NCBI GenBank assembly: GCA_044892525.1
Contig: CM097886.1
Location: 177,680,312 to 177,744,082 of the forward strand
Direction: 5' to 3'
From: Schmidtea polychroa
Taxonomy: Eukaryota
DNA length: 63,771 nucleotides
The notes under the pieces were generated by a model. That model saw only the letters and a list, made by a program, of their open reading frames with translations. It was not told the DNA's origin and did not search any database. Shown in pieces: positions 1,107-26,759 of this stretch. How positions within the stretch are numbered: position 1 is the stretch's first letter; each line of letters opens with the position of its first letter. A program made the translations under genes and the position numbers.

Positions 1107-1423
1107 CTACAGTCGATTGAAATTTCTATTAACGAATGCGAAATTCACCGGGATTTTCATAAAAAATTAAAGGGATTTATCACATCGATTTTCTGTTTTC
1201 GACCGACCATTGCTTGACGAATGCAAATTGACTATTGATTATTAAATTATATCAGGAACCAAGTAGAGAAAATCAAAATGTAGATAATAGAAAAATTAAG
1301 GATATATATAAATAAAGGAGATAAAGTAGTCAAGTTAAATAATTAACAATGGTTAAAGAAACCAATTAACGAATTAACTATTAATTTACTACATATTATT
1401 AAAACATTACTTTTCCAACAGCT

Positions 1424-1909
1424 ATGACAGAATTCGCGAACCAAATGCAACAACTGCTCAAGTTTATCGATATAGAAAACGACTCCCTAACAACACTGAC
1501 GCATAAAAGAGAAAAAATCAACGCGATATTACTACAAGCAATCGGACAAACACCAGTCGTACCTAATCATATGATATTAGCCACAGGCCTAAGTCGCCCA
1601 GATGGAAAAATAAACCCCGAAACCGTATATCAGTGGTATCAAGAGAGATTGAACCACCCAACATTAAATCTAGATTATCAGCGTCTAAAAGACTCACTAA
1701 ATACAATACCAGATGCAATCGAACAAAAAATACAGGAAAAAGTTAACCAATTACGAACTTGTATAGCCTGCAAACTCCGTCCTATTCGCGTATTATTCTT
1801 ACCGTGTGGACACCTCAGTCACTGTGAAGAGTGTGTAAAAGACCTAAAAAGATGCACGATGTGCAAATATGAAATAAAAGAGACCCATATGGTCTATTAT
1901 GGCGAATGA
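1424..1909 (+). CDS. 161-aa protein with C-terminal IAP/Mdm2-type RING-HC finger (no BIR)
   Basis: CIAC...LFLPCGHLSHCEEC...CTMC followed by the terminal hydrophobic tail HMVYY; acceptor-like CTTTTCCAACAG|ctATG upstream; AATAAA at 2014. Confidence 0.85.
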   Translation: MTEFANQMQQLLKFIDIENDSLTTLTHKREKINAILLQAIGQTPVVPNHMILATGLSRPDGKINPETVYQWYQERLNHPTLNLDYQRLKDSLNTIPDAIEQKIQEKVNQLRTCIACKLRPIRVLFLPCGHLSHCEECVKDLKRCTMCKYEIKETHMVYYGE

Positions 1910-3224: not shown

Positions 3225-4533
3225 AGGCCTAGAAAAGCGAGAGATAGCAGTTAAGCTACAATGAGATAATATTTAAAATTACTAGTGATACGGAATATTA
3301 AAGCTAGCTAGAACAAATTGAATGTAATTTTGAAAATTCGAGTTTAGAGAGGAAATAAACGAGCTCGTGGAAAAGAAAACAAGATTATAAGGAAAAAGGA
3401 AAGGGAAGAAGGAAACGAATTAAAGAGATAATAGAAAATAAAGAATAGATGAAACAATGATAATGAGTAAAGAGGAAAGTAACTAACTAATTAAAGGGAT
3501 CCCAGTGAAGTAGAGAAACTCTACGGAATTTTTTTTTTGGGTAAACCGGGAAAATGTATTTTTATCGGTTCCAGAGTAGAACCGAGTGGGATAATAGTAA
3601 ATACGAAAAGTAAAACAGCGACAACAGCGCAAAGGAATAAGAAAACGAAGGGGGGTAATAAGCAGAGACCGACAACGACCTATTTTTACTATAATTGATA
3701 ACGAATAGATAATTATTACGACTTTATAGATAATTGTTACTACCCCATATAGATAATTTAAAATCGACGGAAAATACGGGCTGATGGGATATTATAAACC
3801 GCAGACAGGATTTCACAAAAGATAGGGGAAGCACAAACAGAAACCTAAAAGGTGTCTGTTTTTGAATGTTGTAGAAAGAATGATGAAGTCGTGTAAGCAA
3901 ATGCAACACGAGATCATTTTTTCATTTTAGATATCAAGCCAATCCAGCCAACCAAGACAATCCAGAACCTGCACAAAAGGAATTCGAAGAAAATCGACAA
4001 TCAACCAAGGATAAATCCATTCAGAACCCGCACCGAGAGACACAGCAACCGGAAGACTCCAGAACGGAAGAAGTATTAGCAGCCATCTGCCAAGGATTAG
4101 TAAATCTCCTCAGGATCTCAGTAGCAGATTCATACAGAATATTTATCGAAGGAAACACAATCAGAACCGAACGCGTCCGATTCAATAGCCGCTAATTACC
4201 AAGAAGCGTAAGAAAGGAATCACGGATAAACCCAATCTTAGATCTTCTAGTAAGCCAGGAGACGTATTATTTTCAGGAGACGAATTACAACAACTCAAAA
4301 GAGGACGATCCATTAAACATCAAAGAGGAATATCACAAGGATCCAGAAGAACCAATCAAGTACCCATATTTGACCAAGAAAATCTCGGATATACCCCTAG
4401 TCGATCTCGAAGTAGAGAAAGTCTGTCCGATATCACTAATAGTTTAGCAACGTCAACCGAGGAATTATCAGCCCAAAGTTTAGTCACATCGTTAGACAAT
4501 TTAAAAGAAACAGACGAACCTAGAACACCAATC

Positions 4534-5439
4534 ATGACGAATGTCGTAAAAACCGACGAGTATAAAGAGAAGTTCAGAGGAGAACCGTTCAACGGAAATG
4601 CAAACAAGCTAGCAACGTTCATAACTAATTTTGAAGTTTATATCACTGTGTGTGGATGGACACCCGAAGCAATTAGTAAAAGGATGCCGTTGTTTTTGTG
4701 CGATAGTGCATTAGAGGTATATTTAGAAGCTAAAGAGAGAGACACGAAATTAGAAAAGTGGGAAGATATTAAAACATTCCTGAAGAAAACCTTCGGAGCC
4801 AGTAAGCCAATCAACCAGGCGTTGGGCGAACTAGCAAATAGGAAACAAAGAGCAAACGAATCGATAACATTATATGCCAGTGAATTGCGGAGATTAGCAA
4901 AGAAAGCAATGAATGGAAAATTACCCGAAGAAAATCTGATCGGTTATTTCATAGAGGGATTACGCCGAGAAGAAGTAAGAGCCTCAGTAGGTTGTCAAAT
5001 GTGCAAAACATTAGAGGAAGCCATAGATTGGGCTACAAGATGCGAGCTCCACCTTCCAGCTCAAATGAATATTATGCAAGAGGAGGGAAGGATAGCGACA
5101 GCAATAGCGAAAGCAGATAACGGAGATAACAACAATCAAGAACCGAAAATGAATCAATTTATACCAGGAGCGCACCAAATTTTCAAACCACCACAAGGAC
5201 GATCAAACGGGAATAATGGTAATCGTAACAACCCGAATAATGAGAACAATTTCAATAATCGGCGAAATATGAACGATAACAAGCAGTGCCGAACATGCGG
5301 TAAACCAGGACACTGGGACAGAGATTGTTATAGAAATTCAAATTGTAATCGTTGCGGACGGCGTGGACATACCGAAAATGTATGCCAATTGCGAGGCTGT
5401 TTTAACTGTGGTCAGCCAGGTCACATCTCCAGAGATTGC
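4534..5439 (+). other. gag: Gag: capsid-like domain plus three CX2CX4HX4C zinc knuckles (5287-5439)
   Basis: PFNG...W..IK..LKKTF...LANRKQRANESITLYASELRRLA...YFIEGL pattern; CRTCGKPGHWDRDC, CNRCGRRGHTENVC, CFNCGQPGHISRDC. Confidence 0.92.
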
Positions 5440-8400
5440 CGAGAAAGGGGCCAACAACAACGACCACCACAGCGAAATAATAATTATGTAGCGAATCCGC
5501 AACGACAAAGTAACCCTAACGAAGGAAAACAAATGAACGTTATGCAGGAAATTTCGCAGATGAAACAGATGATGCAGCAAATGATGAGACCAAGACAAGA
5601 ATCAGCACCACAACAAACCCAGAATATACGTATGATGAGGAGTACCGAAAATCTCAACAATTATGAAGTGCATCAACATGTACAAGAATGGCAAAGGCTA
5701 CAGGCCGAGGAAGAGAGGATAAAACAAGAACGCAACCAACAACGACAAGAACAACCATTGCGAATAAATATGATGAGGTTAGTAAAAGACATGAAGAGCC
5801 AGTATTGCTACAATTACGGGAAAAGCCCAAGGGTAGTACCCATGACTGAACCAGAAAAGGTAAAAGAAATAACAACGGAAATGAAAACAGAGAATTCAAC
5901 CACGATTTTAAAAGGAAACCAGAGAATTCAGAAAATATTCTGGAAAAAGATAAAGGATAAAATCGAAAAAGAACATAATAAAGCGAAAACCGAGACAGAA
6001 GATGAAAATAACAAGAGCAAGGAACAAACCAGTCAACTAAACCACCGAATGCTACAAGAATCAGAATCGGAAGAAACAACAATATTCGAAAGAAAGAAAC
6101 TAAAGAGAGTACCAAGGATGAGAAACTTGCAAATCAATATGATGAAAAGGACAAAAGATGTAGCATCATCAGACGAAGAAGAAGATTATGTAAGTAGTTT
6201 GGGTGGAGAAATACTACAGCCGAATGAAATAAGCGAACCCCCAAAAGGGGAAATCAAAGAGGAAGAAAGCGGAAACGAGATAACCAGTGAAAGTGAAGAC
6301 GAAGATATCGAAATAAAGTTGAGAAAAGCAAGGGAGGAAGCGATAAAACAGGTAGCCGAAATACTCCCAGTAGTAGTGAGGAACCAAGAGTTCATCGACG
6401 TAATATCATTCAGGCGATTCGTGCAAAAAGTGATGAAATTGGAAAGAAACGAGAAAGATCTAATACCAAACGAGGAAAAATCAATTATAAAAAATTATAT
6501 GGAAAAAATGAAGCAGGCCGATACCACGCGGTATGTAATAAAAATTGGAACGAGTAGAGGACTTGAAAGAATGTGGATAAAAAATACAGTCACCGACGAA
6601 CTTTTCGATTGGATACGAGAACATTTGGGAAGTTCGAGAAAGAAAGAATATCTGTATCAATACCAAGGAGAACAGATCAAACCAGATAAGCACTTAGTAG
6701 ATGCACTAATATGGCCAGGAGAAACGCAAATACTGAAGTTGCATAAAGAAAAACAACCAGCCAACCTTTACGATTGGGCTAAAGATGCCAAGGCAGAATA
6801 TGATTTTAATATCAAATTGAAATTAGAACAAATAAAACAATGTACTCTGAGACGAAACCTGGATAAGCTGATCAAACAAATTCAAGAACAAGTAGAAGAC
6901 AACTGGGATTTACTCATCACCAGACGAGCCCCAGCCATGTACGAACTAATGAGCCGGTTGCGAGATACAGAAATGCTCCGAATGAGTGATTGGAGAACCA
7001 TAAATTTGATCCACAAATATGGAAGGTTAAAAGAAACCCAGCCACAGAGGTTGGAAATAACCATATGGTTACCGAACGAAGAAAAACGACGAATAAAAAT
7101 GAGCAATCAGAGTACAGTGGATGACTTGGTATCAAAAATAAACCAAGAGATAACGGAAAAGGTACGTAGCGAAAGTAGTGATGGTATGGTGGATGATGTA
7201 GTCATGATGTACGATAAGATAATATTACGAGCGGAGGACGACACCTCGTTAAGCGAAATGGGTATGTGGGACAATCATCAGATAATCAGGATAGTACCAA
7301 TGGATGAATTCCGAACAAGAGATGTAACATATCAAAAAGAAATACGAGACCGGATGAAAACGTTATATCAAAAATCTACAGAAATAATTGAAATCCACCA
7401 ACAATGGTTAAAAGAAAAAGAGCTACAAGGAAAAATCACGAAATTAAATACCAGATCCTGCAGACGAACCCCATGGGAAAGAGTATGGAATGCAGAAAGT
7501 AAGGAATGGGAAATCCGGAAAGGAACCTTCGTAGAAACAGACATTGGTGAGACAGAAAGTGAATCGGAGGAAGAAGAAGAGGAACCTCCAGAATATGAAG
7601 AGGAAGCAAGGGAACAGACATCAGATGACGAAAGCGAGACGGATGTCACATCAGAAAGCGAAAATGAAGCGAGACATATTCATGCAATGAGGAAAAAGGA
7701 ACGTGAATATGCTGATATGGACGGCGAGGAAGCGGCGGAAGCAAGAGAACGAGAAGAGAAAGAAAGATATAAACAATTAGGCGATATTTTAGCAATGGGA
7801 GCGAAAAATCAAAAACGCCAGGTAGTAGCGTTGGCTAATATCATCTTAAAAACATCAGAGAATATCCACAATCTGAGAGGAATGGCAAAGGCAATAGAGG
7901 AATACCGGCAATATAATGAATGGTATCCAGAACAGCTAGAACAAATTATTCGAAAATGGAGAAATCAGGAATGGGCACAAGACACCCAGGAGAGGTATCA
8001 CATCCGAATCAAGTATCCGGACAAGAGCATCGAGGAACTAGAGGTGCATCCAACAACAAAAATTAGAGAATTAAAAAAGAAATTAGCATATGAAACTCCA
8101 TTCCATCTGCAACTGTTCGGAAAATCACTAGACGATAATGCAGACGTCGGGATAACACCCATGAGATTGGAAGAGACAAATGTATTAACAATGGCAGAAA
8201 CGTTGGGAAAACCGTTAAAAAGGAAAAGTAAAATTACTAAACCAACAAAAGGCAGTTTGAGTACTCCAAGTCCGAACAAAGCACCAAGTAAATCTAATGA
8301 AACTGAAGAAGTTGAAGAGATAATCCTGGAAGATAGTGACGATGAACCAGGAGAAAGATCACCGCTATTAGTGAGATGGCCGACAGGAGCCGAAATGTGG

Positions 8401-11400
8401 ACTAATAACCAGCCATCAACGAGTTATCAACAACCAACGAAACTGAACATCAAAGAAATCATCGACAATACTACGGAAACCGAAACGGATGAACAATTCC
8501 AGAAGCAAAGAGAACCAACGAAAGTAACACCAGAAAGTCAAACCGACAAAATAATAGACGAATGGAATGAGTGGCTAAGAAATAACGATAGCTCATTACC
8601 CAGAACGGATAACGAAAGAAATCCGAATTACGAAAATACCAGAGAAGCCGGAACGATGATGGAAAAACGGGCAAAAGGAAGACCTAAGAAACAAGGAGAA
8701 AAGTCTGAGTTAAAAACCAAAGAACAATTAAAGCAAGAACAAGGGCAAGTTCGATTAGAAAAATTGGATAAAATAGTATGGGATCTAAAGGAAGCCCAAC
8801 CAACGATCGAAAGAGGAGAAAAATGGATACGAGAATTGTTAAAAGATATATTAATAATAACAAACCCACAACTTAGACGTTTGTGGCAACGGAAAGTAGC
8901 CAGTACGGAAGCTAGACAATTATGGCACACCATTTCGGGGATAATCCCAAAGTTAATCAAAGAGAAAACGAAAACCACCAAAACGGATTGGGATGAAACA
9001 AAGAGAGTGATTGAGCAGCTCACGACGAATGCAAATGATGACGAACATCACCTAGTGGTAATCACGTATTTGATGTATAATTTGATGGGACTAGCCGCGA
9101 GGAAAATACCAAATAAACAATTTGCAAATCATGTGGAAATGACCGTTTCAATCATAGAGAATACTATTGAACCACATATTATTCGTGCAGGAGGATGGAA
9201 AAGACTGATACAAGCGCCACGGAAAAATGAGCAAGAAAGATCGATGCAAGTTAGATTGAAAAAATTGTTAAATGAACTAGAATGGGAACTACCGATGAAA
9301 GATCCCGCAAGCAGAAAAGCATCAATAAATTCGTTAATGATGACTATGATGATATGGATGTTGTGCACAAGTGGAGCAACAGGTTTTACCATCTACGATT
9401 GTGATAATATGATAATGAGAGATAAATACTCATTGAGAGACATAGAAGAATGCAGACAAGCCTCACCCAACAAATTGGACATCGTGAGAACAAAAGTTAC
9501 TTACCATGTATATCAAGAATCAGATTTCATCAGAACGCAAGCAAGGGAATGCGTAGTATCAAAAAAGGTACTCGCATATTACTGTGGACAATATTCGTAT
9601 TCGACTCTTATACTACCCGGTCTGGATAAGGAAATCGTATCAATACAACGAGAGGATTGTAAAGAGCTATTTAGAACCGGAGCGCTAAAAATGCATAACG
9701 GAGTGACAATTCACGGACAAACTGGAATGATTAAAACCGAAAGTGTTTACGTAGCCGGAAAAGTAAAATCATCAGATGGGTCATGTAACGGAGGTACGTA
9801 TACGATCCGAGGCGAGGTAATATCGGGAGTTGTAGTGATCGAGTCTTACACGGTCGAATTAAAAGAATACGAAGCGCAATTTGACGCAAATAATTACCAA
9901 ATGAAGACCAACCCAGCGTGTAAAGCTACAGAAAACGTATGCAGGACAGGAGTATCAACTATAATCTATGAAGCTAATACCCAAAAATGCCGACTCCAAC
10001 TGTTAAAAAGTGCTTTGTTCAATGAAGTAAAAGGAGAAATATATGAGAACGAGAACGACGAGGATGGAAACGACAGAGTGAGAATGCGAAATGGAAAACC
10101 AATGCCACCATCTCCCAGAGAAAAGAGACTTTCAACGCAGAAGACACCAACAGCATTAATCACAGACGATCCAGATCTAGGTATGAGGTTTATCAAAGAG
10201 AAAGAAACCACCAAATGTGACAGTATAGTATATAAAACCAATTACGCAGGCATCTATATGTCGAGACAAATAATCGATAGAGCAGTGGGAAAGATAGCAA
10301 CGGAGGACGTAAAACTATACTTATATGCAAATAATAAAATGGATTTTCTATTTCATCGTGGACAAACGACCTTGCAAAAAGTATATTACGATCTGATACA
10401 AAACGATTGTTCATTGAATAAAGAAATATTGAAAACAAAGCTAGCTATTGCGATAACGCACCCAGATAACACGATGCCATCACTCCCATTACCAGATGGA
10501 CACTTTGGTAGAATGGTAGGAGAAGTGATGTACACATACCAGTGTACCAAGACGTATGCACGAATGCCAGAAAAATCCATACTACCCGAAAAGAGATGTG
10601 CAAATGAATTAGAAATCCGTTATAAAGGACAAAATCGATTCGTCCAACCAGTCACTAGAATTATGAATCCAGTGGGTTTCTACCCAAATCTCTTTAACTG
10701 TTCTAATGCATACGGACCTTTATATGAAAGGCCCGATGGGAAATGGATGATGTTACCGGGAAAAACCATATCCGAGGAGCCCAAGAAATTTGGATTAATA
10801 GAACTCGCCACAGAGCTGGATTTCAAACCTATAGACGTGTCAAACGGTGGTATGTATTCCCCAGAAGATCTAGAAACAGCACGACTTAACGTACTCTTCC
10901 CAGCCAGACGAGAATCCATTTTGTCTAATATGGTTACAATAACTGGGGGCACAAATTATCAATCAGGCCCGAATTACGAGCTGCTATTATCGCCAGACCA
11001 TTTTCAACAAGCTACGTCAAACATGATGAAAGCAATGTGGGGAAGATTCTTAGTTTTTGGACAAATGATGGCCGGGATATTAGGGATCATACTCATAATT
11101 CAGATAGTCAGAGTAATACTAACACAAATGTTAGCTTGTTTCGATATATACAAGCGGGAAAAGAAAGTTAACTGGAAAATGATAGTAGGTTTCTTACCAT
11201 TTTTAGCTAAGACCATGGTATTACATGGCCACTCAAAAGACATCCATCGGATAAAGCGATTGATAAAAATATTAACAAAGATTAAAGGAACCGACGAAGA
11301 AGTAGGCAGACGATTCCGGAAAGTAATGTACGATGAAGCAACAAGACGACAATTGAAAAAGAATAAGCCAAAATTCTTGGACCGATTTAGAAGCCAATCA

Positions 11401-14400
11401 TCTAACAGCGATAGTGACGACGATGATAACGGGAACGATAAATGTCTTTATCCAAACAGAAACCCAAACGAAAAACCAATGGAAACGGCACCATATTGGG
11501 AAAAGGAAAAGACAAACACCTGGATCGCCAATGGAAGCTATATACCACCGGATATCGTGGGACCACAAGCAGCTTTGACCATGACACAAAATATGTATCC
11601 GCAATTACCGAGCCAACCCGGTATGCATTATATGCCGACACGACGTACCAAAAGTGTAGATCAAGCAGATGACGTAAGAACAATCGCAGCAATGAGTCTG
11701 CCTGGAGGTCCAGCAGTAACAGTTATGATTCAAATCAATGGTAAAGAAACCAATGCTATGATAGACACAGGAGCTAATGTATCAGCGATAGCGATTAATC
11801 AAATTCCCAGTAAACACTGGAAAGATATCGAATCAACAACAATTCACATCATAGCATGTAGTAAAGAAACAGTGGACGTGGTCGGAAGATGGTGGACTAC
11901 ATTGAGATACCAGGACAACGAAATTGAAACGTATTTGGCAGTAATACCAAAACTTAGCGTACCATGCATAATCGGAACGGACCTGATGCCAGAATTATTA
12001 AAAGAAGTCGTAATAGACTTAACAACTATGTGTCTAAAAGACAAAACCGGTAGAATATGCAAAATGAATGCAGTAATCAGATGTCCAGAAAAAATAATAG
12101 TACCAGCGAAATCGCAGATGATTTGTCAGATAAAAGTGGATACGGGTATGGAAGGAGAAGTTATCTTTGAACCAAGCAAGTCATTCGAAAAGCGACGAGA
12201 ATTACCACTCGCAAGAGAAATAATCACCATAAACCAAGAAGGAGTGATACCGCTCAACATCACGAATTTCGAAGAGGAAGACAAAATCATTTATGAGAAC
12301 GAAAAATTGGGAAGATTGACCCCAATGATGGACATAGAATTACCGAAAGTGACCAACGAGATGATCAAAGATGATGAATTATGGACAATAGATAGTATGT
12401 TGTTGACGAATAATGAAAAGAAAAAATTACACCGATTGTTGGTAGAATATAAAGATATATTCGCCATCTCAGACTTAGACTTGGGTACATGCGATGTTAC
12501 CCTACATGCAATACCCCTCATAGATGAAACTCCAATTGCATTAAGACCATACAAGCTAGCAGAAATGCAAAAAGAAATAGCCGAAGCAGAAGTACAAAAG
12601 ATGCTGGACGCAAAAGTAATCGAACCAAGTTGCTCACCTTGGCAATTCCCAGTGGTCATGGTGAAAAAGAAGGATGGCTCCCAACGATTCTGTATCGATT
12701 ATCGGAAGTTAAACGCAGTGACCAAGAGAGATACCTATCCATTGCCGGACATCAATGAGATGTTATTGATGTTGCAAGGGGCAGCATATTTTACTTCTTT
12801 AGATCTAAAAAGTGGATACTGGCAGATTAAAGTCAAAGATGAGGACAAAGAGAAAACAGCTTTCACGTTGGGACGAGATCTATATCAATTCAGGAAAATG
12901 CCATTTGGACTGACCAACGCACCAGCATCATTTCAACGGTGTATGAACTTTGTCACCCATGGAATCAAACAATGTATGGTATATATTGATGATTTACTAA
13001 TCTATTCAGCGACATTTGAACAACATCTGGAAGATATCCGAAACGTATTTATTAGATTAAGACAGTGGAAACTCAAACTCAAACCATCAAAATGCGATTG
13101 GGCAAAGGAAAAAGTCACGTTTTTAGGACACATAGTGTCAGCTAAAGGAAAGGAGCCAGATCCAAGAAACATTGAGAAAATAAAAACATGTCCAGCACCG
13201 AAAACTGTCACCCAAGTTCAGGAATTTCTAGGATTATGCGGATACTATCGCAAATTTATCAAAAATTATGCAGGAATTGCAAAACCAATCCAGGAATTAG
13301 TAAAGAAGGATATTTCGTTCATTTGGGAAAAAGAACAACAACAGGCGTTCGAAACGCTGAGAGATAAACTAATCGAAGCACCTATCCTCGTACACCCAGA
13401 TTTTAAGAAGCCATTTCTATTGGCAACGGATGCAAGCGGGTACGCGGCAGGCGCGATTCTGGGACAATTAGACGATGAGGGAAAAGAGAGAGTAATCGGG
13501 TATTACAGTCGAACATTCAAAAAGCACGAAAAGAACTATTCGGTAACAGAACGAGAAGCATTGGCTATAATACAAGCTATCAAACACTTCCGATATTTAC
13601 TATGGGGACATGAGATATGCATAACCACAGATCATCAACCATTAGTGTGGTTAGGGCAACATAAAGAAGCGTCCAGTAGACTGATGCGATGGGCCATGCA
13701 ATTGCAAGAATACTCCCCATTTATAAAATTCAAAGCGGGAAGAGCAAATGCCAACGCCGATTGTATGTCAAGATTTATTTTCCCAGATTTGGTGGATTCC
13801 GAAATGCAACGCATATGCTTAATAGTAGCGGAAGATTTGGATTTCTGTCAATTACGAAAGGACCAACAAGAGGACGCGGAATTAAAACAAATTATCGATT
13901 ATGTAAAAACCGGAAAGACAGAGGTATATGCGAAAGACCAAAAATTAAAAGAACATATGGATAAACACCGACACCGATATATTATAGAGAAAGATTGGTT
14001 GCTGATAATGGATGGGGAAAAACGATTAATGTGTATACCGGAAAACCGACGAAAAGAGTTACTAACGCAATATCACGATGGGAGATTGGGAGGACATATG
14101 TCATCGAAAAAGACGTTAGCAAGAATGAAACAGAAATATTTTTGGCCTACGTTAACTGAAGATGTAACCGAATGGGTAAAAAATTGTCTAACTTGTGCAA
14201 CCAGGAAGAATACTGGATCGAAATGGAAAGCACCTTTAACGCCAATGCCAGTACCAATAGAACCAATGACAATGATATCCATGGACGTAGTTGGTCCACT
14301 ACCAGAGTCAGATAAAGGAAACGTTTACATTCTAGTGATCACAGACTTTCTTACGAAATTTCCAGAAGCATTCGCGATGCCAGACCAAAAAGCTAAAACA

Positions 14401-17400
14401 ATCGCAAAAATTTTGGTAGAAGAGATATGTTGCCGATATGGAACACCAAAACAAATCTTAACCGATCAGGGAACTAATTTTATGAGTGAGATAATGAGCG
14501 AAGTAACAAATTACTTCAAAATAGCAAAACTAAGAACATCTCCATACCACCCTCAAACCAATGGGATGACGGAAAGATTTAATGGAACACTTACACAAAT
14601 GTTATCAAACTACGTTGACCGTCACCAACGAGATTGGGACGAATATATAAACCTATGTCTTATGGCGTACAGAATGTCGATTCACGCATCAACGAAAATG
14701 AGCCCATTCAAATTAATGTACGGAAGAGAATGTAACATGCCAATGGACCTGGAATACCAACCACCGATATCGCAGTATATGGAGATCGATGATTATGTTA
14801 CGAAATTCAAGGAAAGAATGCAAGAAATTTGGGAAACTGCGGGATTAAATATCAAGTTCTACCAGGAAAGTTATAAAGATTTACACGATCGAAAGAAAAA
14901 CGTGAAGCAACATACGTTCCAAACAGGTGATTGGGTAATGATAGAAACCCCGGAATTAATTCCAGGAACCACAAAAAAGTTACAACGCAACGGAAAAGGA
15001 CCATATGAGATCTTATTCGTAGGCGAAACTAATGTAAGAGTGAAATTGGTAAATAACCCCTTTACCAGACCAATATACGTAAACGTGGCACGATGCAAAT
15101 CAATTCCAAAAACAGCCACTAGTCAACCAGAAGGCCGTACATTAACCACACGTTCGCAAACCTACCGAATGAACATGATGCAACAACTCGCAGAACCGAT
15201 CACTGGACGATTAGGTATCCAACCATCAGAAGCGGAAAAGATTGTAAAAGAGGTAAAAATTAAAATACCTGGATGGGCAAAAGATCGATTAGATTTCGAA
15301 ATATTAGGAGGATTATTGACGATGATCGAGAACTATGCAAATAGAGAAAGGACACACCCATTATTGCGAGTAGTCAAAAGCCAATGGCCAATATTATTTA
15401 CAATAACAGATCATTACGGAGACACACCATTACACAAACTCATGAAAGTAGGTAACAACGAGCAAATACTAGAAACAATAGAAGCATTTCACGACTGCAA
15501 GCGATCAACAGAACAAACAAACAACCAAGGTTACACACCATTAATGATAGCCGCAAACAAAGGCAAAACAAAAGACATTATAACCGCATTACTCGATACC
15601 GGATCGAAAATAACTACACAAGACCACGAGCGGAAAAACGCTCTACATCATGCTATCGAAGGGAGAAGTACCGAGGCGTTCACGTCATTGATGGAACTAC
15701 TATCATATGAGGACAATCGGGAAGTCGGAAACATGTATGATGGATTGTTAACAGCGATCAAAGAAAAACTGACGACAATTACCGGAATATTAATTACATG
15801 GAGAAATCCAATTCGAAACGATTATATGATCAACGTAAACGAAGCGTTCACGAGAGGAGAGAACACGCTGATGAGAGAAGCTATGAAAGGACATCAGTTA
15901 TTCGAAATCCCGAATCAATTACTAGAACGAGGGATAAAATTCACAAATCATAAAGACGAACAGTTAGCAAAAAAGCGAATCGACACATTCGAAAAATCCC
16001 TATTCCAATTTACTAACCAAGTACGAAATAAATATTGGGAAACGGTAAGTGTGTTATATATGATGGACACAATGAATAACATCCGCGAGAATTACCTGGA
16101 TATTATCCAAATACTTACAGCAGAGGAACGAATCAATAATCCAAACGGAAAGAAAACGAAAATAAGGTATGAGAAATCCAGGGAATCAAAGTCAACAACG
16201 AACCAAACGGTCACAAACAACGTCATCGAAACCAAATCAATGAGTATAGATCAAGAGGCAATAATACGCAAAGCAAAAGAAGTGTTCTTTGAGGAAATGC
16301 TAGAGCTGCCAGACGAAATAATATTGTCAAAAATAATAAAAGCCGTACACACATACGCAAGAGATCAAACCACGGATTTAGATATCGGGAAAATCAAAAC
16401 CTTCTTGCCTCGAGCATTTACGATGGTAACGAAGGATTCCAGAACACCCCTACAACAAGCAATACTAGCAGCGAAAGAAAATAGAGCAATAACGATCGTG
16501 AGAATCCTTGGAGAGATGGGCGAGGAAACCAACACGAAAAATGAACAAGGTGAAACCGCCATGATGTATGCAGCTATAACGAAAATACACCCAAAAACAC
16601 TCCACATCCTACATCAATCAGGATCGAAACTAGACGAAAAGTCCAATGAAGGAAATTCCACCTTGGACTGGGCAACCATACAGCCAAACTTAGAAATGAT
16701 CAGATTTATTTGCAAAAATGCGACAAAAGAAGAAGTCGAAAATATGTGCAAAAACACATCTCAGTTTCAATGGAATGCGGTACGGAAAAATCTAGAAGCA
16801 ATGAAATTATTATTAACCTGGAGAGTACCACAAAATAATAAATATGCGATAAATGTAAACGAATTCTACGAAAACGGAGAAAATGCGATGGTAAAGAATA
16901 CCCTAACTAAGGGGGGGACACCTAAAATAATTTTAATAGTATTAAATAGAGAAGACCTAAAATTCACGCAAAATCAGAACGAGCAACAACGAATTGGGAA
17001 ACATCGTCGTATGCAATTGAGAGAGTTAGTTAAAGAATGGAATAGAAAGAGACATGCTGCAACGGGTAGAAAAGAGTTTGAATTCGAAGCAAAATTAGCA
17101 AGAAACAGAGTGCTAACAGCATATCGCAGATTATTGAACGATATAAATGTCGAGGACGACATTTTAAACGACAGCGGGGGAGATAAACACGATGACAATA
17201 ACGGAAAAGGCCGAAAGGAGGATAAAGAGAAAAGAGAACAGGAGGAGGGTAAACCGGAAAACAAGGATTCGGATACGAAAAGAGAGGGAAACAGCCCGGG
17301 AACTAAGACCAAAGAGGAGGAAAAATCGAATAATGGAAAACAGAGGGTATGCCTACCTTTCACTAACAAAGAAATAGAGACAAATATGATATTAATGATA

Positions 17401-18387
17401 ATTATGCTTACCATGATAGAGTTAGTAACAGCTCAGGGAGGGACGAGAACGATAAAAGAAACCAAAGAAGCGGAGAATCAAGATAGCAAAGAGGATGAAC
17501 TAAAGCAAGAAAAGAAAAAGCAAGCACAAGAGCAGCAGTGGGATTTAAAGGAAGAATGGGACTTAAAGGAAAGGTGCATACTAGGAAGATGCATGTCTAG
17601 AGCGTATCAGAAACTAGTACTGATAAATGAGGCCACAGAACCAATAACAGAAGTAAGAATACAAGAAGCATACCGAAATCGAGACGGGAAGAGAATAACG
17701 AACGTCAAAGGAAAAGAGGTACACCTAGGAAAAGGTGGTGAAGTAGTAATAACGCAGATCCAACCTAGAAAAGAGCACAAAGTCTGTATTTCAAGATTAG
17801 GACCAGGCGAGAGATGCCATCAATATGTGACGCAGCAGCAGCCGCCGAAAGAATACACGGTTTGTATCTGGAGGAATGAATCAAAAAGAGAATGCCGACG
17901 ATACCCGGGGAAAAGAGGAAAGAAAAGAAAAAACCACGACGAAAAGAACGAAGGAGGAAAGCACAAGAAAACTGGTGAGGAAGCTCAGGACAACTATGTT
18001 TCGGAGGAAGAGATGGAAAAAATACAAAAGATGGCAAAGGAGGGTATGAACGAGGAAATAGCAAGAATACGGGAAATGATGAAAGGAAATGGCAAAAGAG
18101 GAAACGAGAAAAGTACAGAAGCGATATCAACATTAACAAACAAGGAAAAACCAGAGAGTATAAGCGTGAAGCAGATGATGTGGATCAGTGGGATAATAAT
18201 AACAGGGGCATTCCTAATCATAACGGGGGGAACAATAAAAATAATTAAGGATAAACGACATCGCGGAGAACTAGAGATGACTCGAATCAGAAATTTCCAA
18301 CATCGAGTGAAACGACCAAGTGATATCAAACAAGAACAGTGGGTGGAGGCCTGGAACGCTCAGCGCCCTCCAAACTCACGTATATAG
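4534..18387 (+). CDS. 4617-aa Gag-(UBL/Bcl-2-like)-Env-Pol-ankyrin-membrane polyprotein
   Basis: Single ORF containing zinc knuckles, DTG protease, YIDD RT, TDAS RNase H, HHCC/D,D35E integrase, ankyrin repeats and hydrophobic segments. Confidence 0.97.
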   Translation: MTNVVKTDEYKEKFRGEPFNGNANKLATFITNFEVYITVCGWTPEAISKRMPLFLCDSALEVYLEAKERDTKLEKWEDIKTFLKKTFGASKPINQALGELANRKQRANESITLYASELRRLAKKAMNGKLPEENLIGYFIEGLRREEVRASVGCQMCKTLEEAIDWATRCELHLPAQMNIMQEEGRIATAIAKADNGDNNNQEPKMNQFIPGAHQIFKPPQGRSNGNNGNRNNPNNENNFNNRRNMNDNKQCRTCGKPGHWDRDCYRNSNCNRCGRRGHTENVCQLRGCFNCGQPGHISRDCRERGQQQRPPQRNNNYVANPQRQSNPNEGKQMNVMQEISQMKQMMQQMMRPRQESAPQQTQNIRMMRSTENLNNYEVHQHVQEWQRLQAEEERIKQERNQQRQEQPLRINMMRLVKDMKSQYCYNYGKSPRVVPMTEPEKVKEITTEMKTENSTTILKGNQRIQKIFWKKIKDKIEKEHNKAKTETEDENNKSKEQTSQLNHRMLQESESEETTIFERKKLKRVPRMRNLQINMMKRTKDVASSDEEEDYVSSLGGEILQPNEISEPPKGEIKEEESGNEITSESEDEDIEIKLRKAREEAIKQVAEILPVVVRNQEFIDVISFRRFVQKVMKLERNEKDLIPNEEKSIIKNYMEKMKQADTTRYVIKIGTSRGLERMWIKNTVTDELFDWIREHLGSSRKKEYLYQYQGEQIKPDKHLVDALIWPGETQILKLHKEKQPANLYDWAKDAKAEYDFNIKLKLEQIKQCTLRRNLDKLIKQIQEQVEDNWDLLITRRAPAMYELMSRLRDTEMLRMSDWRTINLIHKYGRLKETQPQRLEITIWLPNEEKRRIKMSNQSTVDDLVSKINQEITEKVRSESSDGMVDDVVMMYDKIILRAEDDTSLSEMGMWDNHQIIRIVPMDEFRTRDVTYQKEIRDRMKTLYQKSTEIIEIHQQWLKEKELQGKITKLNTRSCRRTPWERVWNAESKEWEIRKGTFVETDIGETESESEEEEEEPPEYEEEAREQTSDDESETDVTSESENEARHIHAMRKKEREYADMDGEEAAEAREREEKERYKQLGDILAMGAKNQKRQVVALANIILKTSENIHNLRGMAKAIEEYRQYNEWYPEQLEQIIRKWRNQEWAQDTQERYHIRIKYPDKSIEELEVHPTTKIRELKKKLAYETPFHLQLFGKSLDDNADVGITPMRLEETNVLTMAETLGKPLKRKSKITKPTKGSLSTPSPNKAPSKSNETEEVEEIILEDSDDEPGERSPLLVRWPTGAEMWTNNQPSTSYQQPTKLNIKEIIDNTTETETDEQFQKQREPTKVTPESQTDKIIDEWNEWLRNNDSSLPRTDNERNPNYENTREAGTMMEKRAKGRPKKQGEKSELKTKEQLKQEQGQVRLEKLDKIVWDLKEAQPTIERGEKWIRELLKDILIITNPQLRRLWQRKVASTEARQLWHTISGIIPKLIKEKTKTTKTDWDETKRVIEQLTTNANDDEHHLVVITYLMYNLMGLAARKIPNKQFANHVEMTVSIIENTIEPHIIRAGGWKRLIQAPRKNEQERSMQVRLKKLLNELEWELPMKDPASRKASINSLMMTMMIWMLCTSGATGFTIYDCDNMIMRDKYSLRDIEECRQASPNKLDIVRTKVTYHVYQESDFIRTQARECVVSKKVLAYYCGQYSYSTLILPGLDKEIVSIQREDCKELFRTGALKMHNGVTIHGQTGMIKTESVYVAGKVKSSDGSCNGGTYTIRGEVISGVVVIESYTVELKEYEAQFDANNYQMKTNPACKATENVCRTGVSTIIYEANTQKCRLQLLKSALFNEVKGEIYENENDEDGNDRVRMRNGKPMPPSPREKRLSTQKTPTALITDDPDLGMRFIKEKETTKCDSIVYKTNYAGIYMSRQIIDRAVGKIATEDVKLYLYANNKMDFLFHRGQTTLQKVYYDLIQNDCSLNKEILKTKLAIAITHPDNTMPSLPLPDGHFGRMVGEVMYTYQCTKTYARMPEKSILPEKRCANELEIRYKGQNRFVQPVTRIMNPVGFYPNLFNCSNAYGPLYERPDGKWMMLPGKTISEEPKKFGLIELATELDFKPIDVSNGGMYSPEDLETARLNVLFPARRESILSNMVTITGGTNYQSGPNYELLLSPDHFQQATSNMMKAMWGRFLVFGQMMAGILGIILIIQIVRVILTQMLACFDIYKREKKVNWKMIVGFLPFLAKTMVLHGHSKDIHRIKRLIKILTKIKGTDEEVGRRFRKVMYDEATRRQLKKNKPKFLDRFRSQSSNSDSDDDDNGNDKCLYPNRNPNEKPMETAPYWEKEKTNTWIANGSYIPPDIVGPQAALTMTQNMYPQLPSQPGMHYMPTRRTKSVDQADDVRTIAAMSLPGGPAVTVMIQINGKETNAMIDTGANVSAIAINQIPSKHWKDIESTTIHIIACSKETVDVVGRWWTTLRYQDNEIETYLAVIPKLSVPCIIGTDLMPELLKEVVIDLTTMCLKDKTGRICKMNAVIRCPEKIIVPAKSQMICQIKVDTGMEGEVIFEPSKSFEKRRELPLAREIITINQEGVIPLNITNFEEEDKIIYENEKLGRLTPMMDIELPKVTNEMIKDDELWTIDSMLLTNNEKKKLHRLLVEYKDIFAISDLDLGTCDVTLHAIPLIDETPIALRPYKLAEMQKEIAEAEVQKMLDAKVIEPSCSPWQFPVVMVKKKDGSQRFCIDYRKLNAVTKRDTYPLPDINEMLLMLQGAAYFTSLDLKSGYWQIKVKDEDKEKTAFTLGRDLYQFRKMPFGLTNAPASFQRCMNFVTHGIKQCMVYIDDLLIYSATFEQHLEDIRNVFIRLRQWKLKLKPSKCDWAKEKVTFLGHIVSAKGKEPDPRNIEKIKTCPAPKTVTQVQEFLGLCGYYRKFIKNYAGIAKPIQELVKKDISFIWEKEQQQAFETLRDKLIEAPILVHPDFKKPFLLATDASGYAAGAILGQLDDEGKERVIGYYSRTFKKHEKNYSVTEREALAIIQAIKHFRYLLWGHEICITTDHQPLVWLGQHKEASSRLMRWAMQLQEYSPFIKFKAGRANANADCMSRFIFPDLVDSEMQRICLIVAEDLDFCQLRKDQQEDAELKQIIDYVKTGKTEVYAKDQKLKEHMDKHRHRYIIEKDWLLIMDGEKRLMCIPENRRKELLTQYHDGRLGGHMSSKKTLARMKQKYFWPTLTEDVTEWVKNCLTCATRKNTGSKWKAPLTPMPVPIEPMTMISMDVVGPLPESDKGNVYILVITDFLTKFPEAFAMPDQKAKTIAKILVEEICCRYGTPKQILTDQGTNFMSEIMSEVTNYFKIAKLRTSPYHPQTNGMTERFNGTLTQMLSNYVDRHQRDWDEYINLCLMAYRMSIHASTKMSPFKLMYGRECNMPMDLEYQPPISQYMEIDDYVTKFKERMQEIWETAGLNIKFYQESYKDLHDRKKNVKQHTFQTGDWVMIETPELIPGTTKKLQRNGKGPYEILFVGETNVRVKLVNNPFTRPIYVNVARCKSIPKTATSQPEGRTLTTRSQTYRMNMMQQLAEPITGRLGIQPSEAEKIVKEVKIKIPGWAKDRLDFEILGGLLTMIENYANRERTHPLLRVVKSQWPILFTITDHYGDTPLHKLMKVGNNEQILETIEAFHDCKRSTEQTNNQGYTPLMIAANKGKTKDIITALLDTGSKITTQDHERKNALHHAIEGRSTEAFTSLMELLSYEDNREVGNMYDGLLTAIKEKLTTITGILITWRNPIRNDYMINVNEAFTRGENTLMREAMKGHQLFEIPNQLLERGIKFTNHKDEQLAKKRIDTFEKSLFQFTNQVRNKYWETVSVLYMMDTMNNIRENYLDIIQILTAEERINNPNGKKTKIRYEKSRESKSTTNQTVTNNVIETKSMSIDQEAIIRKAKEVFFEEMLELPDEIILSKIIKAVHTYARDQTTDLDIGKIKTFLPRAFTMVTKDSRTPLQQAILAAKENRAITIVRILGEMGEETNTKNEQGETAMMYAAITKIHPKTLHILHQSGSKLDEKSNEGNSTLDWATIQPNLEMIRFICKNATKEEVENMCKNTSQFQWNAVRKNLEAMKLLLTWRVPQNNKYAINVNEFYENGENAMVKNTLTKGGTPKIILIVLNREDLKFTQNQNEQQRIGKHRRMQLRELVKEWNRKRHAATGRKEFEFEAKLARNRVLTAYRRLLNDINVEDDILNDSGGDKHDDNNGKGRKEDKEKREQEEGKPENKDSDTKREGNSPGTKTKEEEKSNNGKQRVCLPFTNKEIETNMILMIIMLTMIELVTAQGGTRTIKETKEAENQDSKEDELKQEKKKQAQEQQWDLKEEWDLKERCILGRCMSRAYQKLVLINEATEPITEVRIQEAYRNRDGKRITNVKGKEVHLGKGGEVVITQIQPRKEHKVCISRLGPGERCHQYVTQQQPPKEYTVCIWRNESKRECRRYPGKRGKKRKNHDEKNEGGKHKKTGEEAQDNYVSEEEMEKIQKMAKEGMNEEIARIREMMKGNGKRGNEKSTEAISTLTNKEKPESISVKQMMWISGIIITGAFLIITGGTIKIIKDKRHRGELEMTRIRNFQHRVKRPSDIKQEQWVEAWNAQRPPNSRI
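6529..8193 (+). other. Three ubiquitin-like (beta-grasp) domains within the polyprotein (6529-6750, 7051-7302, 7996-8193)
   Basis: The third is clearest: IRIKYPDKSIEELEVHPTTKIRELKKKL...LQLFGKSLDD resembles ubiquitin TLEVEPSDTIENVKAKI...LIFAGKQLED. The other two have the same length and strand/helix pattern. Confidence 0.55.
8749..9213 (+). other. Bcl-2-like helical domain within the polyprotein
   Basis: ~155-aa all-helical segment ending in BH2-like IEPHIIRAGGWKRL (9166-9207; cf. Bcl-xL LEPWIQENGGWDTF); the BH1 NWGR motif is degenerate. Confidence 0.55.
9337..11230 (+). other. env: Envelope glycoprotein, chuvirus-G / gB-like type, with internal signal peptide and C-terminal TM
   Basis: Signal MMTMMIWMLCTSGATG|FTIYDC; Cys pattern YDC..YSL..IEEC..YQ..ECVV..YYCG..C..G..SCNGG; furin-like REKR at 10117-10128; TM at ~11047-11120 and a second hydrophobic stretch at ~11179-11223. 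Confidence 0.8.
11695..12066 (+). other. Aspartic protease
   Basis: AMIDTGANVSAI (D at 11764) and CIIGTD motifs. Confidence 0.93.
12430..13773 (+). other. pol: Reverse transcriptase and RNase H
   Basis: SPW..PVVMVKKKDGS.RFCIDYRKLN, LDLKSGYWQI, MPFGLTNAPASFQR, YIDD (12982), TDAS (13426), EALAI, TDHQPL, NADCMSR. Confidence 0.97.
14071..15110 (+). other. Integrase (HHCC, D,D35E, GPY module)
   Basis: H..H...CLTC (14074-14196); D 14284, D 14464, E 14572 (35-residue spacing); GPY at 14998. Confidence 0.96.
15400..17000 (+). other. Two ankyrin-repeat modules (internal ~340-aa duplication) after integrase
   Basis: GDTPLH, GYTPLMIAA, KNALHHA, RTPLQQA, GETAMMYAA and GNSTLDWA motifs; LITWR..INVNE..GEN vs LLTWR..INVNE..GEN offset by 1020 nt. 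Confidence 0.85.
17386..18387 (+). other. C-terminal type-I membrane protein module (internal signal, Cys-containing beta ectodomain, TM, tail)
   Basis: Signal-like MILMIIMLTMIELVTA|Q (17386-17433); FN3-like ITQIQPRKEHKVCISR; TM MMWISGIIITGAFLIITGGTI (~18175-18240). Confidence 0.6.
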
Positions 18388-18907: not shown

Positions 18908-18992
18908 ACCAAACCTAGCTCAAAATGTAAATAATTGTAAATAAAATATCGAACCTGTATCGATAAGAACTATTTGTACATATAATTATAGA

Positions 18993-20381
18993 ATGGATAA
19001 ACGACAAAGAGAAGAGTTCAGAGAGATTGTCGAGCAAGTCCGAAAATCTACAACGATCAGAATACACAAACATGTTATGTGCGGAATATGTGAAAAGTTG
19101 TTAAAGGAACCTCACCAAACGCAATGTGGATGCAGAGTATGTAAAGAATGTATCAGTGAAGCAATAAAGAATAGACCACAGAAGTGCCCGGTGTGTAAAG
19201 AGACACTAATATCGAGTTTAGAAGACACTAACGAGGATAAAGCCGCAGTGAAAGACGTGTTAAACACCAACCTGGGATGCAAAAATGCCCCATGCGAATG
19301 GAAAGGAGTAATATGGAAGGTAGTACAACATATGGGAGAATGTATGTACCGAATTGGCCAGTGTGAAAGGTGCCATAAAACCATTCGAGCAAGCGAAGAA
19401 AAAGAGCATCAAAGGCAGTGTGAAGAGAGATTGGAAAGATGTGAACACTGTGGAGAAATAGATACGTGGATAAATCTCACCCTCAAACATCACAATGTCC
19501 AAGAGGAGAGAGTATGTGCGGAGTTCAGTGGGGAATGCCCAAACGGATGTAACCAAGGGGAAATAATGAAGGTGGCACAGCATCTAAGGGAATGCGAAAA
19601 GAAAAGAATGACATGTGTACTAGGTAGATGGGGTTGTCAGAAATTACTACACCGAGGTGAGTTACCACATCATTTAGTAGAAAATGCTTCAACTCACGCA
19701 GAAATGTGGTCGACTGCGTTACAAGAAAGCGAAGAGAAAGTAAAACAAATGGAGATAGAGATAACATCGTTGAAAGTGTTAGTCAAAGAACTACTAGAAG
19801 AAAGGGAAGCGTTCGAAGAAGCCCGAGCAAACATAAAGATGCAAATAAACCGAACAGAAATTAGTAATAATCAGGCCAAGGAGCTACATCAGAAAATACG
19901 GGAAATAAATCTAAATGAGATAACCCCAACAGCACCCTACATATGGAAAATAACGGGAGTAAAAGAAAGAATACGAAAAGCAAAAACCGGAGAAGAGACA
20001 AGAATAACAAGTCCTACATTCCATTCTTGGAAAAATGGGTACAAAATGAAAATGAAGATATATCCCAACGGGGACGGAACCGGATTAGATACGCACTTTT
20101 CGATTTTCTTTCTGTTATGTAAAGGAGAATACGACGAAATATTAGAATGGCCGTTCCAGGCAAAAATCGATATTACTCTGATGAACAACCGAAGTATACA
20201 TGAGCAAAGCTTCAAAACAACGGGGAATCAAATAGCTTACCAGAGGCCCCTCAACGAAGAAGGATCAGCAACAGGAGCACCTACGTTCATCTCACAACAA
20301 AGAGTAGAAGATATGGCGAGAAATGATACCATATATATCAAGATGACCGTGAGGAAAGAGGAGAAGGGTAGAACGGAGTAA
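18993..20381 (+). CDS. TRAF-family protein (RING - zinc fingers - coiled coil - MATH), intronless
   Basis: RING CGIC..LLKEP.QTQCGCRVCKEC..CPVC; TRAF zinc fingers; MATH YIWKI..SPTF..GYKM..YPNGDG.G..TH.S.F..L.KGEYD.IL.WPF. Confidence 0.95.
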   Translation: MDKRQREEFREIVEQVRKSTTIRIHKHVMCGICEKLLKEPHQTQCGCRVCKECISEAIKNRPQKCPVCKETLISSLEDTNEDKAAVKDVLNTNLGCKNAPCEWKGVIWKVVQHMGECMYRIGQCERCHKTIRASEEKEHQRQCEERLERCEHCGEIDTWINLTLKHHNVQEERVCAEFSGECPNGCNQGEIMKVAQHLRECEKKRMTCVLGRWGCQKLLHRGELPHHLVENASTHAEMWSTALQESEEKVKQMEIEITSLKVLVKELLEEREAFEEARANIKMQINRTEISNNQAKELHQKIREINLNEITPTAPYIWKITGVKERIRKAKTGEETRITSPTFHSWKNGYKMKMKIYPNGDGTGLDTHFSIFFLLCKGEYDEILEWPFQAKIDITLMNNRSIHEQSFKTTGNQIAYQRPLNEEGSATGAPTFISQQRVEDMARNDTIYIKMTVRKEEKGRTE

Positions 20382-20574
20382 CCAATCGAATAATGTTGTA
20401 TATAATAATCTGTATATATCGGTGTATATAACCAATAAAATATTATATAATAATAGTATGAAAACCATAAATACGAAAACCCAAAAATGATGCGAAAATT
20501 TCCCAAGAAACAGTAAATAATGAATAAATTCCTTTTTCATAATAAAAAGATTAATCGATGTCTATGATTTAGAG

Positions 20575-23206: not shown

Positions 23207-23768
23207 ACTCTAACTCAAACATTTGTGTTATTATATGTGGAAACTTTTATTGTATGTACAAACTATCACCTTAAGTGATACTTGCTTGATCTTGCTTTGA
23301 CCTAGATCTTACAATAAAAATTTTATCATTGTTGTATAATTTTCGTGTTCGTGTTATATTTTTTTTTGAATGAATGAATTAAGTTAATTATGCAATTGCG
23401 GGACGCAATTTTGATGGGTCCCCGAGTGATTTGTTGGGCTGAGTCGAAAATTTAATCGTTGAAAAATAGGAAAGTAGGGAAGTAGAACATTAAGAAAAAT
23501 AATAATAAAATAAATAAAATCAGAAATAAAATAGAATAAGATATAAGGAAAATAATAATTAAGACATAAGAATTAAAACAAAAAATAAAATTAAGAAAAG
23601 ATTAAAATAGAACAAGTTGACAAATAAATAAAGAGGAATTCAAGAAATAATAAGGAAATTAAGGAAATAAATAGAAAAACATATTAAAAATAAAGAAAAT
23701 AAGGAAAAAACAACCTAAAAACAAGAAAATTATATTAAATTAATAGAAATAAGCGGTACTCAACTCTG

Positions 23769-23856
23769 ATTGGTCCGCACAAATAAGAATTTGATATATA
23801 TACAACTACCAAAAACATTAAATTTACTGTTAACCCCGAGCATTTCATAGGTAAGA
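23769..23856 (+). promoter_or_regulatory. Candidate Pol II promoter and first splice donor (also +26212)
   Basis: ATTGG (reverse CCAAT) at 23769, TATATATA at 23795-23802, then AG|GTAAGA at 23850/23851, downstream of a ~300-bp A-rich tract. Confidence 0.45.
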
Positions 23857-26006: not shown

Positions 26007-26759
26007 ATGCTACCAACCACTAAATCAGCATTACGGCCGTGCTTCTCGTGCGCGGATAAAAATACGGTGATAAAGGACCTACAAACTCAGATTGGACGTT
26101 ACAAGAGGAAGATAGACGAGCTGGAGGGGACATGGTTTAGTCCCGCTCGGATGAAAGAGATCCAAAAGAAGCTCGATCGTAGCGAGCATTGCCGGGACGC
26201 GCTAATATCTGAAAGCCGTGCCCAAAGAAGTCTAATCAGAGAACAATCCGAGGCACTGCATAAGGTTTACGTGCAGGCGGCTACAACCCGAAAAATAGTG
26301 CAGATTCCCATCCGAGAGGCCGATGACATCTTTCCGCCTCATCACAACCTTTCCTCGAATCCATCTCCACCGTTCAAGAGACCGTGCCGAGACTGCGTCG
26401 AAACCGAATTGTCCCCCAAGCGACCAGATGTTGTCATCACGGGCACCAGTAAGCCCCCCACTGCTAGTCCATCCGTATCAGTCACCCTTCTGCAAGTGGC
26501 ATCTTCAAGCAAACCCAAGCGAAAACAACTCTCTCGTGCAGAGCGCAAGAAGAGACAGCGCGAGCGCGCTACTACAAAGCCAAACATCCCAGCAATGGAG
26601 GACTCAACCAACGGTGGCAACTCTCACGTGTCCATCGACCTAACAACGGGACCCTCGGCACGAATCATATCAGCCGCTGGCGTAATGTGGGAAGAGAACG
26701 CTTCCGAGTTTTTCAACCTCGACGAATTATTCGCCGACGCTGAATGGGAGAAACAATAA
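26007..26759 (+). CDS. 250-aa protein, probably within the LTR: CxxC + coiled coil, basic NLS-like tract, acidic/aromatic C-terminus
   Basis: CFSC; KPKRKQLSRAERKKRQRER; EFFNLDELFADAEWEKQ; TTTATAG|caagcATG upstream. Confidence 0.7.
   Translation: MLPTTKSALRPCFSCADKNTVIKDLQTQIGRYKRKIDELEGTWFSPARMKEIQKKLDRSEHCRDALISESRAQRSLIREQSEALHKVYVQAATTRKIVQIPIREADDIFPPHHNLSSNPSPPFKRPCRDCVETELSPKRPDVVITGTSKPPTASPSVSVTLLQVASSSKPKRKQLSRAERKKRQRERATTKPNIPAMEDSTNGGNSHVSIDLTTGPSARIISAAGVMWEENASEFFNLDELFADAEWEKQ

Follow-up and report, generated by a model that had tools for sequence, protein, structure and literature searches.

A Bcl-2-like domain ahead of the internal Env signal of a Burro-type Gypsy element: homology, membrane topology and possible roles

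The 63,771-nt stretch of DNA analyzed here (hereafter the window) carries a Gypsy long terminal repeat (LTR) element of ~30 kb, whose giant Gag-Env-Pol open reading frame (ORF) includes a helical block upstream of the signal peptide of its envelope protein (Env). Two questions arise from this arrangement: is the block a Bcl-2 homologue, as the original prediction from this DNA proposed, and could the Env signal double as its membrane anchor? The reading that we favor, to which we give a probability of roughly 45% as a whole, is that of a Burro-type Gag-Env-Pol polyprotein with a Bcl-2 homologue that would be tethered to the endoplasmic reticulum (ER) by the Env signal and would promote cell survival by way of a non-canonical surface. 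The features involved are the following:

4189..18387, + strand: Gag-Env-Pol open frame, 4,732 aa (first Met 4534), with Gag, CCHC knuckles, ubiquitin-like region, Bcl-2-like domain, Env, protease, reverse transcriptase (RT), RNase H, integrase and ankyrin repeats
8749..9213, + strand: diverged Bcl-2-like domain, 155 aa, polyprotein aa 1521-1675 (stop-free translation, profiles, model)
8824..8859, + strand: helix WIRELLKDILII, likely alpha1/BH4-like (aligned helix; BH4 likeness by eye; beyond the reach of profile alignments)
9007..9210, + strand: alpha4-alpha8 core aligning to Bcl-xL, including the predicted central hydrophobic helix alpha5 (profiles; model helix 101-120)
9031..9054, + strand: BH1 position, reading ANDDEHHL (neither alignment register has W, G or R of NWGR here)
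9166..9207, + strand: BH2-like motif IEPHIIRAGGWKRL (GGW invariant across all aligned lineages)
9214..9333, + strand: linker, predicted partly helical, of lineage-dependent length
9334..9384, + strand: internal signal peptide of Env, -3/-1 being occupied by small residues (cleavage site inferred from pattern)
9385..11121, + strand: Env, a Monjiviricetes-type fusion glycoprotein ectodomain (Pfam Monjiviricetes_fusion, E 4.5e-69) plus transmembrane helix (11065-11121)

Identity of the Bcl-2-like domain

The 155-aa block is stop-free and in frame, and it has both the BH2-like motif and the BH1 without NWGR that had been described for it. Taken singly, its sequence scores E 0.022 against Pfam Bcl-2 (15.7 bits for a cut-off of 31.4) and gave no match in the PDB at E <= 10 (phmmer), and the domain of another lineage (L148) alone found nothing there better than E 0.34. 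When element domains were aligned, 14 of 15 and 10 of 10 members (two alignments) matched Pfam Bcl-2 at E <= 0.1 (best 8e-7), and profiles built from element sequences only aligned to Bcl-xL over 69 gapless columns, at E 3e-5 for the 15-row profile and 1e-5 for the 10-row one; the 60 PDB rows listed for these profile searches were without exception Bcl-2-family chains. Element profiles also matched five host Bcl-2 exons with 93-95% probability (hhalign; host alignment A4 kept five of seven rows, L043 and L034 being left out). This sequence support lies in the C-terminal half (9007-9210, alpha4 to alpha8), whereas for the N-terminal half the assignment comes from spacing and the model. There, helix WIRELLKDILII was judged against what we take to be the BH4 motif, and the helix preceding it would likely be an extra N-terminal one.

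The fold model of the domain reached a pLDDT of 63 overall and 70-79 for residues 101-150, with a helix at 101-120 (a single-sequence AlphaFold model, at pLDDT 45.5, was excluded from the fold search). Foldseek returned a best E of 0.05 and a TM of about 0.45-0.5 for this model, and all 40 listed PDB rows were Bcl-2-family, 39 by title and one (4k5b) which we take to be Bcl-w. A fold search of BFVD gave no row at E <= 0.001, the top one being herpesviral BALF1 (E 0.53) among unrelated rows. The model is no more than suggestive of a Bcl-2 bundle around a central hydrophobic alpha5; the proposed Bcl-2 identity gains its firmer backing from the sequence profiles. With both the alpha4-alpha8 match (BH1-BH2 region) and the BH2 GGW found, the block is almost certainly a real, much-diverged Bcl-2 homologue.

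To place this domain in context, we compared seven lineages, i.e., the window, L051/L057, L071, L075, L148 and L151 (six in genome G000) and one outside protein, P0003. The genome was searched with Pfam Bcl-2 (150 of 909 candidates scored), with P0003 and L075, and with an Env profile (68 of 2,580 candidates scored), through which alone the L148 and L151 lineages were discovered. P0003 was the single match in a library of 1.84 billion proteins (E 3e-6), and length-limited homologue searches of a 5.8-billion collection gave no match among 554 and 5,114 candidates. The other lineages share 17-30% identity with the window domain. Between the window and L070, the domain has 73 synonymous and 15 non-synonymous differences, with synonymous sites near saturation and a non-synonymous divergence (dN) of 0.042, compared with 0.060 for Env, 0.011 for RT and 0.071 for the upstream spacer. 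Between L051 and L057, the ratio of non-synonymous to synonymous divergence (dN/dS) is 0.12 for the domain, 0.11 for the signal, 0.026 for Env and 0.15 upstream. Judging from these substitution patterns, the domain is maintained as a protein, though no more than its neighboring regions. A GRP(K/R)K motif, which we take to be AT-hook-like, lies slightly upstream of the domain in two lineages (window 8677-8691; L051 ~3790-3815).

Since its BH1 position reads ANDDEHHL, the window copy has no NWGR, and with it lacks the Arg-bearing BH1 of canonical pro-survival proteins; the first BH2 Trp is also replaced by His. Across the lineages, the W and G of NWGR are lost in all seven, and R or K is retained in four, not including the window copy, which has no R. 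The Gly of NWGR is required in Bcl-xL for Bax binding. Within the aligned alpha2 region, itself an inferred assignment, no lineage was seen to have LxxxGD, presumably the BH3 motif of Bax/Bak-type effectors. Among viral proteins, ORFV125 retains G and R, the NWGR Arg being described as a hallmark contact with the BH3 Asp (PMC7719400), and poxviral DPV022 is described as binding Bak, Bax and Bim with no recognizable BH motifs (PMC11209288). Given the uniform loss of W and G at BH1, canonical BH3 binding by the element domain is doubtful on sequence grounds. When the domain was modeled as a complex with residues 38-72 from the Bcl-2-family exon in host locus L021, the prediction (score 0.01, alignment unused) was informative neither way.

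The Env signal as a proposed membrane anchor

The hydrophobic stretch lies where the original prediction had placed it, at 9337-9384, ending in A-T-G directly ahead of FTIYDC, where the Env region starts. The domain does precede this signal, though not immediately, since a linker of about 40 aa separates them. The same order of Bcl-2-like domain (BH2), linker, hydrophobic signal with small -3/-1 residues, xxxYDC and Env recurs in all seven lineages, with 48-76 aa from GGW to YDC and about 23-53 aa from GGW to the hydrophobic segment; the window family has a short hydrophobic core (about 12 aa) and 48 aa from GGW. In L148 the segment begins 23 aa past GGW, close to the 16-24 aa seen in the stop-terminated tails of Bcl-2 genes on Polinton-like elements (described below).

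Because this segment follows a long cytosolic polypeptide in frame, cleavage by signal peptidase would leave a C-terminal helix on the Gag-ubiquitin-like-Bcl-2 piece. At least transient anchoring of the Bcl-2 piece at the ER by the Env signal is thus a probable outcome of the predicted topology. A precedent is the hepatitis C virus (HCV) core protein, which ends in the E1 signal peptide, is anchored to the ER by it and is later freed by signal-peptide peptidase (PMC5402940). The domain does not qualify as a tail-anchored Bcl-2 protein in the strict sense, as the frame continues into Env and a C-terminal helix would arise only through cleavage; the Env signal may be the functional equivalent of a tail anchor, though it is not one in kind. 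The idea of a C-terminal anchor is sound as regards topology, and the order is conserved; if retained, the anchor would target the ER, by way of a signal anchor, rather than mitochondria, by way of a tail anchor. That the Env signal might be the captured gene's own tail was also considered, and found unsupported beyond a short likeness to L036 after BH2 (23 bits). The signal resembles the other Met-rich signals of the element.

Possible function and origin

The mechanism that we favor would run as follows. After a single ancestral capture of a Bcl-2 gene, the internal signal of the polyprotein would insert into the ER membrane and signal peptidase would cut ahead of FTIYDC, which would leave the Gag-ubiquitin-like-Bcl-2 piece with a terminal membrane helix and a cytosolic N-terminus, i.e., the topology of a tail anchor. 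The element protease could then release the Bcl-2 domain with its anchor from Gag, and the domain might dampen death signaling in the element-expressing cell, alongside the TRAF-like and RING ORFs. The pro-survival role by itself we regard as an even bet.

Against this reading, VIA ranks plain four-helix bundles above Bcl-2 for the fold model, the hydrophobic segment of the window is weak (best 19-aa Kyte-Doolittle mean, KD19, of 1.27 vs. 1.96-2.43 in the five other G000 lineages), and in one comparison (L051 vs. L057, dN/dS 0.32) no other part is as relaxed as the linker. The first, together with a single sequence that stays under the Pfam cut-off and has no PDB match, would fit a generic helical region with a chance likeness to Bcl-2; this explanation is largely refuted by the profile E of 1e-5 against the PDB, by the Pfam matches of all ten aligned members and by an independent published annotation of a BCL2-like motif (PMC6431247), and we consider it very improbable. 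The other two bear on whether the signal serves Env only, the Bcl-2 domain being soluble after cleavage of the linker by the element protease or signal-peptide peptidase, or through a separate Env start. Such an arrangement would accord with the short hydrophobic core with C/T/S/G at its end, with the variable linker, with the Met residues that open the core in several lineages, and with the later cleavage of the HCV anchor by signal-peptide peptidase (PMC5402940). The weakness of the window's segment counts for less, though, in that the stop-terminated tails of Polinton-borne Bcl-2 genes are equally low in hydrophobicity (KD19 1.03-1.24). Against a soluble domain, no Met separates GGW from YDC in L057, so that a separate start for Env is doubtful in this lineage and its signal is internal unless splicing supplies a start; moreover, the domain and signal are adjacent in every lineage, and the cores of L148 and L151 are of membrane-spanning length (KD19 2.0-2.4). 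A soluble domain seems unlikely.

Two further explanations accept the Bcl-2 fold or its remnants and differ on what the domain does. Poxviral Bcl-2-fold inhibitors of NF-kB provide a precedent for a signaling adaptor that would bind TRAF/IKK/TIR-type partners and have no direct role in apoptosis. In agreement with such an adaptor, every lineage has lost NWGR and replaced its Gly by an acidic or polar residue, no LxxxGD is visible in the aligned alpha2 region, and the same element has TRAF-like, RING, ubiquitin-like and ankyrin modules; yet the sequence is nearest to cellular Bcl-xL/Bcl-2, BH2 is retained, and no poxviral NF-kB inhibitor was recognized among the listed fold matches (a weak point, given the model), and we give it a minor chance. 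Alternatively, the domain may have turned into a particle component, namely a matrix-like spacer near the membrane that uses the signal anchor to keep the Gag precursor at the ER and takes no part in death signaling. It is fixed in one frame between Gag and the signal, and would therefore be made 1:1 with Gag and Env; its BH3-groove signature is lost and its constraint is similar to that of structural domains. Against this purely structural role are a BH2 GGW and alpha5 pattern retained at about 20% identity between lineages and the remaining cargo, which points to death and ubiquitin signaling, and its chances appear slim.

As to the source of the domain, we compared the element profile with 11 non-retroelement Bcl-2 loci (some of them partial exons). 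The best score was that of L032 (29.6 bits), a gene amid ordinary host surroundings, followed by L043 (24.4), L034 (20.8) and L036 (18.4 bits, or 23.8 including the tail). L036 and L043 are multi-copy and lie in elements with an A32-type ATPase, an integrase and capsid- and PolB-like ORFs (the last two identified by eye, Pfam giving no match), which we read as Polinton-like. In a tree of 18 rows, which left out the L148 and L151 lineages, the seven element rows form one clade (93/94), which joins L032 and the Polinton-borne genes weakly (70/82, with a long-branch warning). A single ancestral capture of a Bcl-2 gene is likely from these sequence relationships.

The Polinton-borne genes form two multi-copy families with their own hydrophobic tail and stop (L036-L041, L049 and L050; L043-L048; flanks L133-L140), one with a short intron and the other intronless. 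With copies on the retroelement and on Polinton-like elements, Bcl-2 is thus cargo of two unrelated classes of mobile elements in this genome. Separately, a canonical gene of the Bcl-2 family, with NWGR, occurs as a cluster of seven near-identical copies within 1 Mb (L021-L027; G000:C4, 89.9-90.8 Mb). A bolder scenario, which we consider rather unlikely, is that an ancestral flatworm retroelement fused a captured Bcl-2 to env, with one helix serving as both Env signal and anchor of an ER Bcl-2 and the BH3 groove traded for a new target; the source may be shared with the Polinton-borne genes, as cargo traded among unrelated elements that would keep regenerating stem cells alive.

The element and its relation to known systems

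The Gypsy element is present in the window in a tandem layout of LTR-body-LTR-body-LTR, resolved with the upstream flank, one unit including both LTRs measuring 30,074 bp. Positions 1-27293 are identical, letter for letter, to 26213-53505, and the LTRs (3,862 bp) are accompanied by a 4-bp target duplication. Two units that share their middle LTR and 27,293 identical bases point either to a very recent tandem or to a duplication made in assembly. There are hints of such tandems elsewhere in the genome (~26 kb spacing among near-identical copies; L051/L142). Further features are:

1403..1909, + strand: accessory RING ORF, C3HC4_3 type (Pfam)
~6481-6753 and ~6961-7278, + strand: two further suspected ubiquitin-like regions, by eye, with no Pfam confirmation
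7966..8238, + strand: ubiquitin-like domain upstream of the Bcl-2 block (Pfam ubiquitin E 0.0043, weak, under cut-off)
18945..20381, + strand: accessory TRAF-like ORF, RING + MATH (Pfam)
23432..27293, + strand: shared middle LTR, 3,862 bp, TG...CA, identical to the LTRs ending at 1081 and 53505; GAAT 4-bp target duplication flanks the tandem
34961..35425, + strand: identical Bcl-2-like domain of the second unit, within ORF 30401-44599

In the polyprotein, Pfam finds in order Gag, CCHC knuckles, a Monjiviricetes-type fusion glycoprotein (E 8e-71), protease, RT, RNase H, integrase and ankyrin repeats, and no BIR match was obtained among 12 window proteins scanned with Pfam (short or spliced exons lying outside the scan). 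Toward the polyprotein end (17380-18222), aa 4398-4418 again look like a signal and aa 4660-4678 form a transmembrane helix, likely marking a second type I membrane protein after the integrase and ankyrin repeats. Near-identical copies number at least 150 (150 of 733 genome-search candidates listed) at 94-100% identity; of these 150, ~59 lie within a 4,732-aa frame by eye count and only 5 have a stop inside the Bcl-2-like domain. The window's element family is young and high-copy. Four runs, of which two are guessed to be RNA and the type of the other two is not given, have contigs over the stretch in 30, 30, 30 and 12 of 30 bins, which speaks to presence only.

Elsewhere in the element, a primer-binding-site-like sequence just after the LTR (1082-1106) presumably resembles that for tRNA-Pro, and a 74-bp tandem array (2368-3333) separates the RING ORF from gag in the 5' internal region. 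Downstream are two coiled-coil accessory ORFs (20524-22497; 368 and 258 aa) and a further accessory ORF (22538-23206) whose start is Met-rich and signal-like and which also has a hydrophobic helix, none with a significant Pfam match. A Tc1/mariner-type DDE transposase ORF (62451-63665) is external to the LTR element. A shorter sister element of the L051 lineage (L142:1700-3865) has a downstream ORF of 722 aa, exonuclease-like by eye, with no Pfam match.

Bcl-2 mimics are typical of large DNA viruses, and the retention of Bcl-2 in every lineage examined here suggests that control of host cell death matters for high-copy retroelements. Planarian Burro elements have been described as carrying a BCL2-like motif, ubiquitin-like, MATH/TRAF, BIR and ankyrin modules, with env in frame between BCL2 and protease (PMC6431247, an account of Burro/GYPSM1 that draws on Grohme 2018 and Jurka 2007). 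That account already has the BCL2-like motif ahead of an in-frame env; what the present analysis adds is that the signal-anchor layout is conserved and NWGR uniformly lost, along with a lead on origin. The literature searched contained no statement of the signal-anchor idea, Grohme 2018, Lee 2026 and supplements lying outside that scope. BURRO1 is transcribed upon loss of PIWI control (PMC8532177), and its anti-apoptotic cargo B-IAP protects stem cells according to a 2026 study as cited in PMC13465017. With this IAP cargo reported as stem-cell-protective, the Bcl-2 domain becomes an obvious second candidate. Arkhipova and Yushenova (2019) call for experiments (PMC6431247).

By size, ORF plan and cargo (the ubiquitin match being weak), the element is Burro-type, as set beside the named Burro families by description only, and this architecture makes a planarian host likely. 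Like Burro/GYPSM1 (PMC6431247), it is ~30 kb long with LTRs and a single giant ORF (4,732 aa, compared with 4,873 and 5,140 aa in those elements), a Gag with CCHC, ubiquitin-like and BCL2-like motifs ahead of an env between gag and pol, ankyrin and MATH/TRAF; unlike them, it encodes MATH/TRAF in an ORF of its own downstream, and the ORFs scanned gave no BIR. A word search of that review met no mention of a signal anchor. The element likewise resembles the GAG-ENV-POL, HSV/gB-type errantiviruses of flatworms, nematodes and bryozoans in its env between gag and pol and in an ectodomain flanked by signal peptide and transmembrane helix (PMC13524379, where "Bcl" is absent from the main text). With cellular Bcl-xL/Bcl-2, its domain shares the gapless alpha4-alpha8 alignment, the BH2 GGW, a predicted central hydrophobic helix and a C-terminal hydrophobic segment, but it has lost NWGR and, in the window, the first BH2 Trp (now His), is part of a polyprotein, and has as its anchor a cleavable signal, predicted to be co-translational and ER-directed. 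The HCV core-E1 junction offers an analogy of topology only, that of a cytosolic protein ending in an envelope signal peptide, whereas the protein anchored there is a capsid protein that is later released (PMC5402940). Finally, the Bcl-2 proteins of dsDNA viruses are similarly diverged, with eroded BH motifs, and are also borne by mobile genomes (PMC11209288, PMC7719400), yet they are free-standing genes of DNA viruses, whereas here the homologue is a domain of a retroelement polyprotein.
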